From the NCBI GenBank assembly GCA_026683435.1, contig GCA_026683435.1_4866.1: a stretch of DNA of 64,000 bases; one strand, written 5' to 3'. This stretch comes from a phage. The position numbers and the translations under genes are program-made. The notes under the pieces were generated by a model that worked only from the letters and a program-made list of their open reading frames with translations, had not been told where the DNA came from and ran no database searches. Shown piece after piece: positions 123 to 63,198 of the stretch. Numbering within the stretch: position 1 is the first letter of the stretch; every line of letters begins with the position of its first letter.

Positions 123-180
123 GATGCTTACCTTTTATAGTCGAGTTGGGGAAATTCAGATGAGGCTTTCTCATCTCACT

Positions 181-1166: not shown

Positions 1167-1622
1167 GTTGCTTCCTTCTTACTACTATTGCTGCTTCTAT
1201 TGGTAGTCCACGACATATCCCTCGTGGGTGGGTTCGGTGTGTAACCGAATAAGTTTTTCTGTTCCCAGGGCAACGCACCAGGCTTAATTGATTTAGTTGG
1301 CAAACCAGGAACAGAAAAGGGGTATACAGACTAGGGCGCGAGGTGGCTCTGGATTGATGCGTAAGAAAAACCCAAACGGCCCTGGCCTGTAAGTTGGCCC
1401 GAAGTCACCGTGTCGGAGGACAGCCCATGCAGGTAGGCGGCAATGGACACGGTGACCGCGGAAGTGGTTCGTGTTACCCTTGACCCGTGTGTGGATACGC
1501 GTCTTATTTCGAATGCCTTCGGGATAAGGATAACACAAATAGGGCGAGCAAGTGGCAGGGATTCGAACCGTCGAAATATCCGATTATGAGTCGGGTGTTA
1601 ATTCCTCTAACTTCGCTGCTCT

Positions 1623-1691
1623 TGCTTTGACCGGTCTCGAACCGGCGACCTTCCTCAAAGAGGCTGCTCTACCTACCTGAGCTACAAAGCC
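1623..1691 (-). ncRNA. tRNA-like element, possibly a degenerate or pseudo tRNA
   Basis: Minus-strand sequence has an acceptor stem, a D-arm (GCTC/GAGC) and a good T-arm (GCCGG-TTCGAGA-CCGGT), but the anticodon arm does not fold canonically (CCTC-TTT-GAGG). Confidence 0.3.
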
Positions 1692-2769: not shown

Positions 2770-2845
2770 TGGCTAAATGTGGCGGGGGCACGAGGTTTCG
2801 AACCTCGAACCTTCGGTTTTGGAGACCGGTGCGCTACCAATTGCG
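2770..2845 (-). tRNA. trnW: tRNA-Trp (anticodon CCA)
   Basis: Clean cloverleaf on the minus strand: acceptor GGGGGTA/TGCCCCC, D-arm GCGC-AATTGGTA-GCGC, anticodon loop CTCCAAA, T-arm CGAGG-TTCGAAA-CCTCG, discriminator G, encoded CCA. Confidence 0.85.
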
Positions 2846-2983
2846 CCATACCCCCAGAATCTTTACTCGGGTGCCATACGGATGGGAGGGGACTTCTTGC
2901 GCTGACCAAACAACGTCAAAACCGTATCCCGTAAACCCAACTGCTTTGGCTTATCCTGATTCTTCTTCGGCTTTTGAGACACG

Positions 2984-4026: not shown

Positions 4027-4933
4027 GGTTTAATTCTCCGTTTGGTTTATCATACCTCACGCAGAATCTGTAAATTTTAATCAGCCAGGTACTGGCGTTT
4101 CACAACGGGAGTACCCACCCCTCTCGTCTGTTCCGAGCCGTCAAGATCCGATCACCCCACTTTGGAGTTATCCCCCAAGTCTGCGGTTCTACACGCAGAC
4201 CCCTTTTCGACGCAACGCCGAATTCGAATCAGTTTTGGCCCGACGCCAGAGCGGAATCAGCGATAACTATCGGAGGTAAGTTCAACGACGTCTCTCCGCT
4301 GCCCAGTCCTCTGGCGCTGCCACGGTCAACTCGGATTTTGTCATGGGTGAGCAGTCGACTTTCTCGACACTCTCGCAAACCGAACTACGCCCGACGTAGC
4401 ACCGTCGGCAGGTCGGTTATTTACCGAGTACCTGAATGGGTGGTGATTGTCGGAATCCCCGCCGACGCTCACCGGTTCTGTTCCACGGCGAAAGTTTTCC
4501 AGAACATAATAAATCACGCAGTGTTAGATTGCGCTTTGTCGAAGACACCACGGTAGGTATTTTCGAAAAAGCGTCCTGGGTAACAATCCCAGGACTTGGA
4601 GCCCTAGCGTGCAGGGTTTAAAAGTGATTGGACCATTGGCGCGGTCAATCGCTATTCGCATATAACAACAAACTCACGTAATCAAAAAATTACCGGCTCG
4701 AGGCGTAGGCGTCCAGGAGCCGGTGAGTCACACAGCAGTGAGTCCCTCTGCGGGGATTTTCGTGGAGCTTGTCGTTGGAATAAAAATCCGTCCCCGGACG
4801 GGTTGGTATTGTGGGTCGACTTGTCAGAGTCTAACGACCAGGGAGGCGACCACCGAAGCTATGGGTTTTTGGACATCGAGTGGTGGTCTGAACACACGAT
4901 AGGGAAACCACGTAAAAAATACACGGGGTACCC

Positions 4934-16493: not shown

Positions 16494-18539
16494 ATGACTT
16501 TTATTCCACGAAACGGCGCGCCGTTGAATAACAAGCAAGGTTGGCAGGATAACTCTGTCCCCGAGCTTGTGCGTACCCCTACGGGTGACGCAATTCATAA
16601 GCCGCTGATCTTCACCTTTGCCGCGCGCGGGGTAGACAACGAGGCGTTCCCGTTAACCGGGGATAATGCACTGTCTCTGCTTGGTCGCAATGTCTTTGAC
16701 TTGCGAGGCCCCTACGCGACGTTTAACACGCCCTATCAGGCGATGTTCAACGCTAACGCAAACGAGTGTATGTATCAGCGCTTGATCCCTGAAGATGCGA
16801 AAACCGCAAGTGTTCGCGTATTCGCCGACGTACTCGAAACGAAAGTTCCGTCCTACGAACGCGACAGCAACGGGATCGTTCAGTACGGCAACTCGGGCAA
16901 GCCCAAGATCAAAGAACAAGTTGACGGTTTGGTAATCGTCTTCCGTTCTGTCGTAATCGACGAAACTACCCCGGCCATCGGCGCAGGTGTGGTTATCGAG
17001 GGGACGATGACTGGCGAAGGCGGCACGAAATCGAAGCTGTATCCGTTGTTCGATATCGCAGGCCCGTATGCGGGTGCTGACGTCAACGGTTTCGGTTTCA
17101 AACTGATCCCACTCAGCGAGAAATCCAGCCCGGCTCTGACCTCCTCCTATCAAAATGAAGTCGGTGGTCGTGTTTACACCCTGCAATGGTTCGAAACCCT
17201 GGCAGGCGTGACTTCTCCGGTAGTGTGGAAAACTCTCACTGGCATGAGTAGCATCAATTTTAGCTTTAAGCCCGATGCATACTATCAGCCGATGAGAACG
17301 CAACTCGACTTCGAAGTTGTTGTTGCGGATGCATATCGTCAGACGATGCCTGACATTGGCGAGCTGCCAGATTATGGTCCTTTCGAGCAGTTCTATCTGT
17401 ATCGCGAGAACCTGGAAACTGTACTGGGCTTGGCTCAGGCCGCTATCACAACTGATGCGCCTGCTGACCCGTATATGGTTGACATCTTTGGCGGCTATGA
17501 TTTACTGGGCCAGCCTTACGATGGTCTTCAGGTAAACCCGGCTACTGAAACCGGTAAAGTTGTGTTCTCCGCATCCAACATCCACTACCTGCAAGGTGGT
17601 AGCGATGGTACCATGAACAACGACGTTTACGACGAACTCGTTCGCCGTGAAATGCTGCTGTTCCCGGATGGTGGTAAAGTCCGTTACGACAACGAGCTGA
17701 AATACTCGCTGGGTTGTTTCTGGGACTCTGGCTTTAGCTTCGATACTAAAGCTGCGCTCGTGAACTTCATCGGTCGTTCACGTAACACCTTCTTGACGCT
17801 GGCGACTCACGTTTACAGCCAAGGCCGTAACGATGAGCAGACAGAAGAAAGTGCAAAAATCGCCCTGATCGAATTGATCACAGCGGTACCGGAATCTGCC
17901 TATTACGGCACTCCGGCTGCACGTGGTATGGTCACCGGCCAATCGGCGTTCATCAAGAACTCTTCCTACAAGAAGCCTGTTCCGATGAACTACTCCCTGG
18001 CGAACTTCTTCTCGAAGTACCTGGGTGCAGGCGACGGTCGTGCAAAACCGGCTTATCGTTTCAGCCGTGGCGAACTGACGATTATCGAAGATCTGACTGA
18101 CCTGAGTATGCCGTGGAAAGGCAACGAAGTGTATGCGTCTGACTGGGATGTGTCGCTGATCACTGCCCGTTCCTACGACTACTATCGCTTGTTCATTCCG
18201 GCGATTCAGTCAATCTACAGCGAAGATCGTTCTGTACTGAACAACGCCCTGTTCAACTTCATGATGACCTACGTCTATCGTGTTTCCGACCGTGTATGGG
18301 CGGACATGTCTGGCGAAGCGGCCATGACGGATGATGAACGTGCGAAGATGATTGAGAACAAAATTATCGAACGTCTGGAAGGCCGTCTCGATAACGTTGC
18401 TGTCGTCACTCCGAAGGCGTACTTCACTGCAGACGATAAATCCAATGGTTACTCTGTGACGCTGGACCTGATCGCTGAAGGCGGTGTGCTGCTCACCCAG
18501 TTCAACACCACTATCAAAGTTTACCGTCGGGAGAGCTAA
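16494..18539 (+). CDS. putative tail sheath protein (681 aa)
   Basis: Size and pairing with a ~290-aa downstream gene match phiKZ-type sheath/tube pairs; GGAGA RBS; strong terminator after the pair; no diagnostic motif checked. Confidence 0.5.
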   Translation: MTFIPRNGAPLNNKQGWQDNSVPELVRTPTGDAIHKPLIFTFAARGVDNEAFPLTGDNALSLLGRNVFDLRGPYATFNTPYQAMFNANANECMYQRLIPEDAKTASVRVFADVLETKVPSYERDSNGIVQYGNSGKPKIKEQVDGLVIVFRSVVIDETTPAIGAGVVIEGTMTGEGGTKSKLYPLFDIAGPYAGADVNGFGFKLIPLSEKSSPALTSSYQNEVGGRVYTLQWFETLAGVTSPVVWKTLTGMSSINFSFKPDAYYQPMRTQLDFEVVVADAYRQTMPDIGELPDYGPFEQFYLYRENLETVLGLAQAAITTDAPADPYMVDIFGGYDLLGQPYDGLQVNPATETGKVVFSASNIHYLQGGSDGTMNNDVYDELVRREMLLFPDGGKVRYDNELKYSLGCFWDSGFSFDTKAALVNFIGRSRNTFLTLATHVYSQGRNDEQTEESAKIALIELITAVPESAYYGTPAARGMVTGQSAFIKNSSYKKPVPMNYSLANFFSKYLGAGDGRAKPAYRFSRGELTIIEDLTDLSMPWKGNEVYASDWDVSLITARSYDYYRLFIPAIQSIYSEDRSVLNNALFNFMMTYVYRVSDRVWADMSGEAAMTDDERAKMIENKIIERLEGRLDNVAVVTPKAYFTADDKSNGYSVTLDLIAEGGVLLTQFNTTIKVYRRES

Positions 18540-20783: not shown

Positions 20784-21455
20784 TTAATCGTGTGAAAGAC
20801 GAGCTTCGAGGTCGTCGATAATGGTATCTGTGAAATAGCTAATATCTAGCTGCTCCACGAAATCCCTGCGTTCCAGAATGCGCTCTGCGAAGAGCGTACC
20901 GTACCAACTAGGGACATTACTAATACCGTTGCGTCCGAACTTCTGTTGGACGTGACCAACGGCATGGAATTTTGCATCGCCTTTACTTTTACCCTGTTCA
21001 CGGGCAAACAGATAAGAACGGTGCATGTAATTACTCACGTCATCTACAGACGGTATACCACGGTCAGCTGCGGCAACTATCTCAGAGACAATCCCGTTGT
21101 AGTTCCCTTTGTGAGAACTGCGGTGTTCTAAGACTGCATGGGCAATCGTCAAACATTCATCATCGGTAAGTTTATACTTACGTTTGAGCACTGGCTTGTT
21201 ATCCAGTATCCAGCTATACCCTTTGATGTGGTGCGATGCACGGTCTTCTTTGGTAGAGAAGATATCGTGAGCTGCCACCGCAATCAGTACCAGCTTCAGG
21301 TGTTCGGTTTGCCCAAGCATATACGCGATACGAATCGCATTTGATTTAACTGAGTTGATGTGATCCATGCGATGCGCACTATCGGTATAACGATAGAAGT
21401 CGCGGAATTGACGAACCAGTTTTTCCCAAAGTTTGTTGAGTTCAGTGCCCTGCAT
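20784..21455 (-). CDS. HD-domain phosphohydrolase
   Basis: H...HD signature (AHRMDH, VAAHDIF); TAAGGAATATT RBS. Confidence 0.6.
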   Translation of the reverse strand: MQGTELNKLWEKLVRQFRDFYRYTDSAHRMDHINSVKSNAIRIAYMLGQTEHLKLVLIAVAAHDIFSTKEDRASHHIKGYSWILDNKPVLKRKYKLTDDECLTIAHAVLEHRSSHKGNYNGIVSEIVAAADRGIPSVDDVSNYMHRSYLFAREQGKSKGDAKFHAVGHVQQKFGRNGISNVPSWYGTLFAERILERRDFVEQLDISYFTDTIIDDLEARLSHD

Positions 21456-21473
21456 GTAAATATTCCTTACGAT

Positions 21474-21487
21474 AATGGTCGATTAAC
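21474..21487 (-). promoter_or_regulatory. conserved palindromic motif P2 (TAATGGTCGATTAA), copy 1
   Basis: Same 14-mer, one mismatch allowed, found 18-34 nt upstream of three minus-strand starts. Confidence 0.4.
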
Positions 21488-21933: not shown

Positions 21934-22332
21934 TCAGATTAGCTGCTCGGCGCGCAAACGTCTCAAAGTGTTCGTTGCTGTAACAAGAACATCTTGCAGT
22001 TCTTGCATTGCTTCACCAACAAAGAACGGTTTAAGATGCAGGTCGCTAGTGATGAGTCCGCCGTATTTGTACGGTAGGTCTGTAATATCACAGACGATGG
22101 GATTTTTTGCTCGCCACGTTTCATCAGCAACAAGAATAAGAAACTTCCAGGCGTCTTGATTGCCGAGCGATTCACCGGTTTCTGGCTTGTAGAGTTCTTT
22201 TAAACGTTTATCGCGCTCGGAGATAAGGTATTCGTCATCAGTCAACAGACGAATTAAATCGGCTTCGTTGCTCTCGGCTTTAGCACAAAGCATCATGGCA
22301 ACAAACGGGTCTTGGCGTAGTTGGTTAGTCAT
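21934..22332 (-). CDS. hypothetical protein (132 aa)
   Basis: ORF; AGAAGGAG RBS. Confidence 0.5.
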   Translation of the reverse strand: MTNQLRQDPFVAMMLCAKAESNEADLIRLLTDDEYLISERDKRLKELYKPETGESLGNQDAWKFLILVADETWRAKNPIVCDITDLPYKYGGLITSDLHLKPFFVGEAMQELQDVLVTATNTLRRLRAEQLI

Positions 22333-22352
22333 TGTAAATACTCCTTCTGGGT

Positions 22353-22366
22353 AATAGTCGATTAAA
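22353..22366 (-). promoter_or_regulatory. motif P2 (TAATAGTCGATTAA), copy 2
   Basis: 21-34 nt upstream of the start at 22332. Confidence 0.4.
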
Positions 22367-22388
22367 GCGTTAACGTGTAACGCTCACC

Positions 22389-22417
22389 TAAGTAATATAT
22401 ATCTCAGTTCTTTTTGA
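22389..22417 (-). promoter_or_regulatory. motif P1 (TAAGTAATATATATCTCAG TTCTTTTTGA), copy 2
   Basis: Near-identical to the copies at 181, 54049 and 63167. Confidence 0.4.
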
Positions 22418-22478
22418 ATGCAATTAATAAAATAAAAAGACTCACCCGTATCCGAAGATAGGATGAGCCTAGTGGAGC

Positions 22479-49341: not shown

Positions 49342-49389
49342 TATAGTTCTCCTTGGGGTCTTTTACATACGTACAGCCGTGGCCGTAAA

Positions 49390-54015: not shown

Positions 54016-54048
54016 AGGTGTTATCCTATTATGAGATGTTGTCTCGGA

Positions 54049-54077
54049 TAGATAATATCTGTCTGAGTTCTTTTTGA
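54049..54077 (-). promoter_or_regulatory. motif P1 (TAGATAATATCTGTCTGAG TTCTTTTTGA), copy 3, in a divergent intergenic region
   Basis: Between the minus start at 54015 and the plus start at 54092. Confidence 0.45.
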
Positions 54078-58030: not shown

Positions 58031-58128
58031 CAGATGTTACCTTTTTGCAGTTCTCGTACATAAGGTTTGGGTGATACGTAAAAGACTTACTATGTAGCCC
58101 AATCCCTTATATATTCGAGGTTGATAGA

Positions 58129-58884: not shown

Positions 58885-58940
58885 AAAAAAATAAGCATTA
58901 CCCACTCCCATAAGGGGAGTGGGTAGGCTTTATTTTATTT
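58871..58940. terminator. bidirectional intrinsic terminator (tacccactccc-ataa-ggggagtgggta)
   Basis: 11-12-bp stem 58899-58925, A-run upstream and ctttattttattt downstream; between convergent genes. Confidence 0.7.
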
Positions 58941-59858
58941 GCATTTAGAACCGTTGACAAATGTCGGCGGTATCCATTTCAAAATCTTTGTCCGATTCCC
59001 GTCACGTGGACCGAGCCAGTAAGTACGCCAGTGTGCACGACGCATATGCGCACATCTGCTACCTTGTGTTCTTTTCTCCGTATCAGTATCAAATTCTTCA
59101 AGATACTCGCTTTGTGCTTTTACGGTGGAGAGGACAGTCGGTTTAGATTTTGGTTCAATGTGGTAATTGGCGATACGTTTCTTTCCAGTTAATTGTCTCA
59201 GTTTGACGGGTGTAGGGTTGTGCGGGATCAGTGAGAATGTAAACATGGTAGCGCCGACAATGCGTAACGTTTTCTCATTGGCCGGCGTACCAGTTTCCGC
59301 CACACGCAAGGATACAAAGCCGTCACCCACGTCCACGATTTCAAAGGTTTCCCCCTCGATACGTTTTCCAAAAATCATCATTGTTAAACAATCTTTCCCT
59401 TTAAACATTCGCCGACCGAAAACGTAAGTCTTTTCTTGGATACCGATATCTTTAGCGCGATAGCACACTGAAAAGGAGACGGCCCAACCGGGAATCTTGT
59501 CTATCCAGCTGCGTGGTATCTCAGTGAGAACGTCGCCAAGTAGAACTTGTTCAAAAATATTAAGATCAAATTCCATTTGGATACCCCCGTATCGCCAGCC
59601 GTAGGCAAGAGACAGGAAGTCTGCGGTGCATTCTTCGGCGAAGCAGTTCTTTAGGAACGCCTCAATCGGTATAAAGTGCTGGCCTATCTCGCCACAATGG
59701 GCTATTGCGTATTGCTCGATGATGGCGGGATCTCCACTTCTGGATTTCACACGTTCGTCGATTTTAGTAAGACCGTTTAAGAAATTACTCGGGGATTCGC
59801 GCATACCGATTACATCTACATTTACCGATTCTGCCAAATCAAAAAGAAAGCTGTCCAT
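58935..59858 (-). CDS. hypothetical protein (307 aa)
   Basis: ORF; AAGGAG RBS; P2 motif just upstream. Confidence 0.55.
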   Translation of the reverse strand: MDSFLFDLAESVNVDVIGMRESPSNFLNGLTKIDERVKSRSGDPAIIEQYAIAHCGEIGQHFIPIEAFLKNCFAEECTADFLSLAYGWRYGGIQMEFDLNIFEQVLLGDVLTEIPRSWIDKIPGWAVSFSVCYRAKDIGIQEKTYVFGRRMFKGKDCLTMMIFGKRIEGETFEIVDVGDGFVSLRVAETGTPANEKTLRIVGATMFTFSLIPHNPTPVKLRQLTGKKRIANYHIEPKSKPTVLSTVKAQSEYLEEFDTDTEKRTQGSRCAHMRRAHWRTYWLGPRDGNRTKILKWIPPTFVNGSKCK

Positions 59859-59875
59859 TTAATACTCCTTTAGAT

Positions 59876-59889
59876 TAATGGTCGATTAA
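59876..59889 (-). promoter_or_regulatory. motif P2 (TAATGGTCGATTAA), copy 3
   Basis: 18-31 nt upstream of the start at 59858, just downstream (minus sense) of a terminator hairpin. Confidence 0.45.
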
Positions 59890-59922
59890 AATAAAACTAC
59901 GGACACTCCGAAGAGTGTCCGT
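59885..59922 (-). terminator. intrinsic terminator acggacactc-cgaa-gagtgtccgt
   Basis: 10-bp stem with CGAA loop directly after the stop at 59927; A-rich on plus strand upstream. Confidence 0.55.
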
Positions 59923-63166: not shown

Positions 63167-63198
63167 TAGATAATATCTATCTCAGATTACTTTAAGAG
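63167..63198 (-). promoter_or_regulatory. motif P1 (TAGATAATATCTATCTCAG ATTACTTTAAGAG), copy 4
   Basis: Same spacing to the gene start (63133) as copy 3. Confidence 0.45.

Follow-up and report, generated by a model that had tools for sequence, protein, structure and literature searches.

The window, a 64,000-nucleotide stretch of phage DNA, carries copies of a 14-mer, P2, on its minus strand. Copy 1 (TTAATCGACCATTA, 21473-21486) is intercistronic, sits inside a 34-nt gap and ends 17 nt before the ATG of a gene for an HD-domain (phosphohydrolase-like) protein (20784-21455, minus strand), the orthologue of SPN3US ACQ60_gp015. Copy 2 (TTAATCGACTATTA, one mismatch, 22352-22365) precedes by 19 nt the ATG of a 132-aa gene (21934-22332, minus strand; orthologue of SPN3US ACQ60_gp017, phrog_27024), and copy 3 (TTAATCGACCATTA, 59876-59889, with its core TCGACCATTA at 59876-59885) precedes by 17 nt the ATG of a 307-aa gene (58935-59858, minus strand; phrog_6160). 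A degenerate fourth copy, with the core TCGACTATAA at 135-144 of the same strand, is followed after 12 nt by the ATG of a gene that is truncated by the left edge of the window and is orthologous to SPN3US ACQ60_gp261. Copies 1 to 3 are on the same strand as the downstream gene and are thus in the sense orientation; their minus-strand sequences are cgtagtagTTAATCGACCATTAtcgtAAGGAAtatttacATG at the HD-domain gene, aacgctTTAATCGACTATTAcccagAAGGAGtatttacaATG at the 132-aa gene and tttattTTAATCGACCATTAatctaAAGGAGtattaaATG at the 307-aa gene. Shine-Dalgarno sequences, read from the sequence, follow on the minus strand as AAGGAA at 21463-21468 (HD-domain gene, 4 nt after P2) and as AAGGAG at 22341-22346 (132-aa gene) and 59865-59870 (307-aa gene), each 5 nt after P2. 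The claim that P2 lies directly upstream of the ribosome-binding sites of three genes therefore holds. The copies exist as first described, with the exception that the coordinates originally given for the first two (21474-21487 and 22353-22366) were one base too high.

The 4-kb stretches around the P2 sites are 97-99% identical to SPN3US-group Salmonella and Escherichia jumbo phages. By this identity the window can be assigned to a nucleus-forming, SPN3US-like jumbo phage, a group that constitutes the genus Seoulvirus, with genomes of about 240 kb. SPN3US-type phages are phiKZ-like and have virion and non-virion multisubunit RNA polymerases. The window is reversed relative to the SPN3US reference (NC_027402) and, since it covers both ends of that record, the assembly is permuted differently. 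A scan with the Rfam 15 covariance models recovered two tRNA genes in the window (1622-1691 and 2783-2855, minus strand) and nothing else; no family matched P2, and the surroundings of sites 1 and 2 were empty at E <= 1.

In phiKZ-like phages, AT-rich early promoters are recognisable bioinformatically, while those of the middle and late classes are difficult to predict (PMC7598289). The 13-mer AGATAKATATTAY is present in roughly 25-30 copies in SPN3US, typically with an A/T-rich stretch before it and CTNNNGTGAG after it, and is conserved as far as Aeromonas phage ZPAH34. By analogy, it has the character of the early virion-RNA polymerase promoters of phiKZ-like phages and is a putative promoter of that type. 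Within the window it occurs at 184-196, 22392-22404, 54052-54064 and 63170-63182 on the minus strand and at 54046-54058 on the plus strand; it is partly palindromic, and the copies at 54046-54064 are back-to-back between divergent genes. The copy at 22392-22404, AGATATATATTAC, which we call variant A, is a putative virion-RNA polymerase promoter (PMC7598289) that would drive an operon of the 132-aa gene, a 129-aa gene and the HD-domain gene. Upstream of it is a terminator-like hairpin with a T-run (22429-22470, minus strand) that was missed by a simple scan and covaries in relatives. Between this promoter and P2 copy 2 lies a 5′ stem-loop, GAGCGTTACACGTTAACGCT (22366-22385, minus strand); in SPAsTU and pEa_SNUABM_29, compensatory changes preserve its pairing. 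Copy 4 has the same kind of surroundings, with the early-promoter-like AGATAGATATTAC (184-196) upstream and a stem-loop (158-176, minus strand) between the two. Copy 3 directly follows a predicted intrinsic terminator, a hairpin with a 10-bp stem and then AGTTTTATTT (59899-59922, minus strand), which ends 9 nt before P2 and would close the upstream early operon.

A second promoter-like motif, TWAC-N13-15-TATG, is present in the SPN3US-type genome and is separate from P2. In the window it is found on the minus strand at 58059-58081, 49366-49388 and 4051-4073, 23-32 nt before start codons, and it resembles a combination of the phiKZ middle (TACT near -22) and late TATG elements (PMC8244752, PMC7598289). 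TATGA and TATGTA are also enriched upstream of SPN3US genes. No sigma-70-type promoter was predicted at any P2 site.

Inside the window alone, the excess of P2 was modest, with 3 matches at two or fewer mismatches compared to 0.38 expected from shuffles; 1 of 100 shuffles reached 3. Our comparison of complete genomes comprised SPN3US, Erwinia phage Asesino (Erskinevirus) and Erwinia phage Machina (Machinavirus). On both strands of the 240-kb SPN3US genome, the exact core TCGACYATTA was found 7 times versus 1.0 expected; genomes simulated from a Markov model contained 0.82 on average and never more than 5. All seven cores were in the sense orientation and ended 17-19 nt before an annotated ATG, a placement with a chance probability of about 3e-20. 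Scanning with a weight matrix revealed a sharp gap between P2 sites and background: 7 sites scored above 23 bits and one, 16 nt before the gp211 ATG, scored 16.6 bits, with everything below at background level. When copies with 1-2 mismatches that are followed by a Shine-Dalgarno sequence and an open reading frame were included, the count came to about 10-12 sites for SPN3US and to 12-15 for Asesino. Lack of genome-wide enrichment at gene starts had been named as the outcome that would count against the original prediction; the strong enrichment in SPN3US strengthened the observation rather than refuting it.

The position of P2 relative to the start codon was unusually constant. The distance from core to ATG in SPN3US had a standard deviation of 0.8 nt; the two promoter-like motifs in that genome scattered far more widely, with values of 19 and 23 nt. 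In Asesino this distance was mostly 16-20 nt, and in Machina the box abuts the Shine-Dalgarno sequence (cGAGGA), with the ATG exactly 13 nt after the box in four of four copies. P2 was in the sense orientation in all copies. Its distribution followed cistrons: the 132-aa gene and the HD-domain gene each have a copy and the 129-aa gene between them has none, while gp211 and gp210 of SPN3US, and gp83 and gp84 of Asesino, each have their own. One start codon may be misannotated: the ATG at 23862 of L001, which lies 24 nt upstream of the RefSeq start of SPN3US ACQ60_gp236 (23886 in L001), has a Shine-Dalgarno sequence and the P2-like box TCGACTATTC, and it is this ATG that matches the start annotated for Asesino gp47.

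Comparison of related phages defined which part of P2 is conserved. In SPAsTU and pEa_SNUABM_29 (about 78% identical overall), the core was intact at both orthologous sites, while the left arm TTAA had become TCAC or TTAC. The right arm tolerates insertion of one base (ATTA to ATTTA). In Asesino, TCGACYATT precedes the orthologues of the HD-domain gene, gp017, gp165, gp210, gp200, gp082 and gp086, as well as those of gp131, gp261, gp236 and the 307-aa gene, and also gp83; the flanks have largely diverged while the core has been kept. Across 13 Asesino sites, information content was about 1.8 bits (1.83) per core position versus 0.07-0.84 bits in the left arm. In Machina the box survives at four genes as T[CA]GACTWT, a variant that runs directly into the Shine-Dalgarno sequence, and ChrisDB and Huxley have the box in the same fused form. 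Judged from these alignments, P2 is best described as a conserved core, TCGACYATT, usually spelled TTAATCGACYATTA. Because this core is kept across diverged genomes, we conclude that P2 is old and under selection. The set of genes that carry it is largely conserved, and its spacing to the start codon is constant within each genus. As a box at a fixed distance has been kept across three phage genera, we consider P2 a real control element. The proposal that P2 marks a co-regulated gene set is supported by the presence of P2 at the same orthologous genes in a phage of a different genus, Asesino, as such a set would predict.

The description of P2 as a palindrome was correct in part. The dyad TTAAT-N5-ATTAA is perfect only at site 3, and symmetry elsewhere is partial, with 5-6 of 7 symmetric pairs in the SPN3US consensus and 3-4 of 7 in Asesino. 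The use of this symmetry as an argument for a dimeric DNA-binding site did not survive, since the asymmetric core is what is conserved and the left arm decays.

We also searched more distant sequences. A scan of IMG/VR for the composite of promoter and P2 recovered known relatives and three short metagenome contigs only, while a scan of IMG/VR for P2 plus a Shine-Dalgarno sequence returned mostly single chance matches in unrelated contigs. The three metagenome contigs (L144-L146) read ATATTACTTAGGTGA ... TTTCGACYATAAcgataggtttaatcaATG, which is the layout of promoter, box and start in more distant relatives. In the Machinavirus-like phage pEa_SNUABM_8, the position before the Shine-Dalgarno sequence is occupied by other short AT palindromes rather than P2: TTAATACCATTAAGGAG before the homologue of the 307-aa gene and TTGATTATCAAGGAG before the HTH gene (L130, about 1060-1089, and L137, about 270-300).

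The slot of the 307-aa gene differs between relatives. The gene is absent from SPN3US, and syntenic homologues are present in SaP7, Asesino and pEa_SNUABM_8. The segment containing the gene, the terminator and P2 (58885-59930 of the window) is missing at SPN3US 186719-186782, where the junction has TTCTAAAT microhomology. The use of the same slot in relatives, together with the TTCTAAAT repeats at the junction, indicates that SPN3US lost the gene by deletion. We therefore rejected the idea that the 307-aa gene is a "moron" insertion, as it is syntenic in three genera and was deleted between repeats in SPN3US. The homologue in the SaP7 slot has just 40% protein identity and 57% DNA identity, yet it stands behind a flank of terminator, P2 and Shine-Dalgarno sequence that is 84% identical. 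By analogy to the cassette-mediated allele exchange described in T4-type phages (PMC2839356, PMC4122927), this pattern suggests allele exchange at conserved cassettes.

P2 is closely associated with one form of the early promoter. It followed an early motif and a 5′ hairpin at six of six variant-A (AGATATATATTAC-YTAGGTGAG) promoters but at only 3 of the 20 remaining early motifs (Fisher p = 4e-4), and lay 24-90 nt downstream of the early motif. In the leaders of gp082 and gp086, the first hairpin is separated from P2 by a second one, which is terminator-like. At gp210, P2 is 3 nt downstream of a TATG motif (TATGtatTCGACCATTA), an arrangement kept in Asesino gp73 (TATGtttTCGACCATTA). P2 directly follows an intrinsic-terminator-like hairpin, with no other promoter seen, at the 307-aa gene, SPN3US gp082 and gp086, and Asesino gp84, gp205 and gp235. 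When the leaders were folded, P2 was predicted to be single-stranded in all of them, 2-10 nt 3′ of the 5′ hairpin, and the Shine-Dalgarno sequence was also free.

The hairpins have features of their own. Each variant-A early promoter has a stable 5′ stem-loop within a few nucleotides, and in the SPN3US leaders of gp211, gp200, gp165, gp131, gp086 and gp082 the sequence of this stem-loop varies between copies and orthologues, with compensatory changes that maintain the pairing. These structures are probably 5′-end stabilisers of early mRNAs. At gp086 (SPN3US L004, 15687-15783), gp082 (17506-17622) and Asesino gp205, the order is promoter, 5′ hairpin, terminator-like hairpin with a T-run, and gene. 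By analogy to the short 5′-UTR-derived RNAs reported in phage 201phi2-1 (PMC11512511), the terminator-like hairpins at these three genes could release such RNAs.

Our preferred model, to which we assign a probability of roughly 40%, is that P2 is an RNA operator in the translation-initiation region of conserved early cistrons that is read by a phage-encoded factor. P2 would be a cis-acting element of the mRNA leader, a single-stranded box just 5′ of the Shine-Dalgarno sequence in about a dozen cistrons of early units. A phage-encoded factor would recognise this box on the RNA. Because P2 is inside the stretch of mRNA that the 30S subunit needs, a factor bound there would switch translation initiation of exactly those cistrons that carry P2. 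The most likely effect would be repression of P2 cistrons after the early phase, and a role as an activator or a tag may also be considered. The fixed spacing, the distribution by cistron, the position downstream of promoter motifs and the sense orientation all point to the translation-initiation region rather than to transcription. Of the two alternatives offered by the original prediction, a dimeric DNA-binding site or an RNA operator in the 5′ UTR, the latter thus fits the geometry of P2 best.

The distribution among phages bears on what reads the box. Asesino and Machina share the host Erwinia amylovora, yet differ in the form of the box and in the genes that bear it, while Asesino and the Salmonella phages have the same box. 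Since the box tracks the phage lineage and not the host, its reader is expected to be determined by the phage. From geometry and distribution, we infer that P2 acts as RNA, that a phage protein reads it and that the effect is in the direction given above. In searches of Pfam, PHROGs and NCBIfam, the families recognised among the products of P2 genes were limited to the XRE type for gp165 and, weakly, a phosphohydrolase for the HD protein; for a trans-acting factor, the proteins behind P2 gave no match to an RNA-binding family in these collections. Several observations count against an RNA operator. Nine nearly invariant bases are more typical of phage promoters than of translational operators, and at several genes P2 comes right after a terminator-like hairpin with no other promoter seen. 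The best copies are near-palindromic, and the most symmetric one is at the XRE-type gp165, the only recognisable regulator gene. Lastly, orientation and spacing could in part have been inherited if P2 and the Shine-Dalgarno sequence spread as one cassette.

The first two of these observations favour a different model, that P2 is a third class of phage promoter at or just after which a multisubunit phage RNA polymerase, perhaps with a specificity factor, starts transcription. We consider this unlikely, although it accounts for a core that hardly varies, always has the same orientation and occurs nowhere but before genes, as phage promoters do, as well as for copies directly after terminator hairpins at several genes without another promoter motif. 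The intercistronic copy could then be an internal promoter. The model implies very short leaders and renewed later expression of early genes. Genes with two stacked promoter classes exist in AR9 and phiKZ, and the "continuously expressed" genes of AR9, which carry two promoters, provide a precedent (PMC7598289, PMC8244752). In addition, the purified phiKZ non-virion RNA polymerase does not use middle promoters, and extra forms of the polymerase are suspected (PMC7598289). In phiKZ, an AT-rich motif of about 10 nt centred near -10 lies upstream of early operons (PMC7598289), late promoters consist of TATG with G at +1 and require all four bases, and middle promoters have an A-rich/TACT element near -22 (PMC7598289, PMC8244752); the AR9 late promoter is AACA-N6-TA/G (PMC7598289, PMC8244752, PMC11512511). 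P2 resembles these elements in being a short, oriented, conserved box before genes of a phage with its own multisubunit RNA polymerases (PMC7598289, PMC8244752, PMC11512511). However, the role of the phiKZ early promoter is filled by AGATAKATATTAY, from which P2 differs in sequence and by its downstream position, and in place of the TATG of the other phiKZ promoters P2 has YATT. P2 thus matches neither AGATAKATATTAY nor TWAC-N14-TATG or TATG, and it has no counterpart of the G(+1), a strict requirement in phiKZ (PMC7598289). Its geometry also fits poorly: at gp210 and Asesino gp73 a TATG motif stands 3 nt ahead of P2, the Machina box abuts the Shine-Dalgarno sequence so closely that a start site ahead of the ribosome-binding site would have 1 nt of room, and the distance from P2 to the ATG is far tighter than that of the two promoter-like motifs. 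Moreover, of the approximately 10-15 copies per genome, most already have an early promoter 25-45 nt upstream.

The symmetry of the best copies raises the possibility, in our view a rather doubtful one, that P2 is a double-stranded DNA operator for an XRE/Cro-type HTH protein (SPN3US ACQ60_gp165, Asesino gp118). Binding downstream of the start sites would block the phage RNA polymerase, allowing this protein to regulate itself and early genes. The protein is clearly of the HTH_3 or Cro/C1 type, and its conservation extends to many related jumbo phages. A dimeric DNA-binding protein is still a candidate because the gp165 gene has the best and most symmetric copy, TTAATCGACTATTAA, with 6 of 7 symmetric pairs, at a site that is identical over 28 nt between SPN3US and Asesino. 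Like the operators of Cro and CI, P2 is a near-palindrome of 13-15 bp with AT-rich arms and has a copy before the gene of an XRE-type regulator. In contrast to those operators, P2 does not have its conservation in the half-sites, keeps one orientation and a set spacing to the ATG, and does not overlap the promoter motifs. A dimeric protein is not favoured, since the core is asymmetric, the left arm has been lost, and copies occur in one orientation at a fixed distance from the ATG. An invariant centre with a decaying left arm is the opposite of what is expected of a dimer site, and one-base insertions in the right arm are tolerated. Uniform orientation and fixed spacing are not needed by a roadblock, and a second copy within an operon would be redundant for transcriptional control. 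Finally, the HTH gene has no upstream P2 in Machina, pEa_SNUABM_8, Miami, PhiEaH1 and ZPAH34, and Machina keeps P2 at four other genes nonetheless.

Cleavage of the leader offers another explanation for a single-stranded box beside a stem-loop, and we regard it as improbable. A phage RNase or host RNase E would cut the single-stranded CY/AUUA stretch, and mRNA lifetime would be set by the resulting loss of the protective 5′ stem-loop or by the splitting of cistrons from each other. P2 is AU-rich as well as single-stranded, lies near the ribosome-binding site, and occupies intercistronic and post-terminator positions; T4 RegB and RNase E act at similarly placed sites on early mRNAs (PMC3014915). 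The distribution of P2, which is independent of the host and specific to phage lineage, speaks against a host enzyme, and no RegB-like protein was found among the subset of proteins scanned. RNase E prefers the loose sequence RN/WUU, and the invariant TCGAC of P2 is not its preference.

We attach similarly little weight to the idea that P2 has no function of its own and is a passive part of a cassette of promoter, stem-loop and Shine-Dalgarno sequence that was spread and homogenised by recombination. The tight association of P2 with one promoter variant would be explained, as would the 40%-identical SaP7 homologue behind an 84%-identical flank, which is the pattern of cassette-mediated exchange (PMC2839356, PMC4122927). 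Against this, in copies predating the split of the genera, the hairpin and spacers diverged freely and the 9-nt core did not. P2 also occurs without the promoter or hairpin, and 9-14 nt is too short to drive homologous exchange alone.

Other candidates were rejected. A lambda nut/boxA-like antitermination site, considered for the order of promoter, hairpin and linear box, was dismissed because P2 lies after the terminator-like hairpins at gp082 and gp086 and occurs without hairpins. P2 was a poor match, compared by eye, to an IHF site and to the RNase E consensus. Pairing with 16S rRNA is the mode of the "epsilon" of T7 gene 10, a short box 5′ of a strong Shine-Dalgarno sequence in a phage leader. 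P2 is similarly placed just 5′ of the Shine-Dalgarno sequence; unlike epsilon, it pairs with 16S rRNA (E. coli) no better than shuffles, with energies of -8.8 to -10.5 kcal/mol that 54%-82% of shuffles equalled or bettered.

A close known counterpart to an RNA operator of this kind is the set of sites bound by T4 RegA, a repressor whose operators occur on about 30 early mRNAs, including its own; these overlap or abut the AUG, are A+U-rich and unstructured, and have no clear consensus (PMC3014915). Like the RegA sites, P2 occurs once per cistron, in the translation-initiation region of early mRNAs, is A+U-rich and predicted to be unstructured, and is present at many unrelated genes (PMC3014915). 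It differs in its place, which is 5′ of the Shine-Dalgarno sequence and 17-19 nt away from the AUG, in having nine bases that hardly vary, and in belonging to a phage of another family than T4, with other RNA polymerases. Since RegA sites overlap the AUG and are degenerate, P2 is not a RegA site, and no RegA homologue was found among the P2-gene proteins scanned (Pfam, PHROGs, NCBIfam). The PeSL elements of T4-type phages, in which a terminator, an early promoter and a stem-loop are repeated between small early ORFs of unknown function, form cassettes that flank gene replacements and indels (PMC2839356, PMC4122927). The unit of promoter, hairpin, P2 and Shine-Dalgarno sequence in the window resembles these, as does the allele swap in SaP7. 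However, PeSLs are composites of sigma-70-type promoters and terminators without a conserved box next to the Shine-Dalgarno sequence, and P2 also occurs alone.

A short leader or operator box that defines a phage regulon is a known kind of element. Apparently new are the sequence of P2, its position at a set distance directly 5′ of the Shine-Dalgarno sequence, and the fact that nucleus-forming jumbo phages carry it, as our search of a literature library found no description of the motif; that search also found no map of transcript ends for SPN3US-like phages. To our knowledge, gene control in phiKZ-like phages has so far been described only through three promoter classes and two phage RNA polymerases. 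P2 defines a small, cross-genus set of genes, nearly all of whose products are of unknown function, and this set includes the HD-domain protein and the only recognisable transcription-factor-like protein. The compact cassette of promoter, 5′ hairpin, box and Shine-Dalgarno sequence could serve as an expression part for phage engineering. P2 itself provides a 9-nt handle for perturbing the gene set and a bait for its reader. We tentatively suggest that P2 may be an RNA address label that marks the first post-transcriptional regulon in nucleus-forming jumbo phages, in which a phage factor or a phage-modified ribosome would read the 9-nt box at its fixed distance from the Shine-Dalgarno sequence and so set when about a dozen early proteins are translated, a timing that would not depend on either of the phage's two RNA polymerases.
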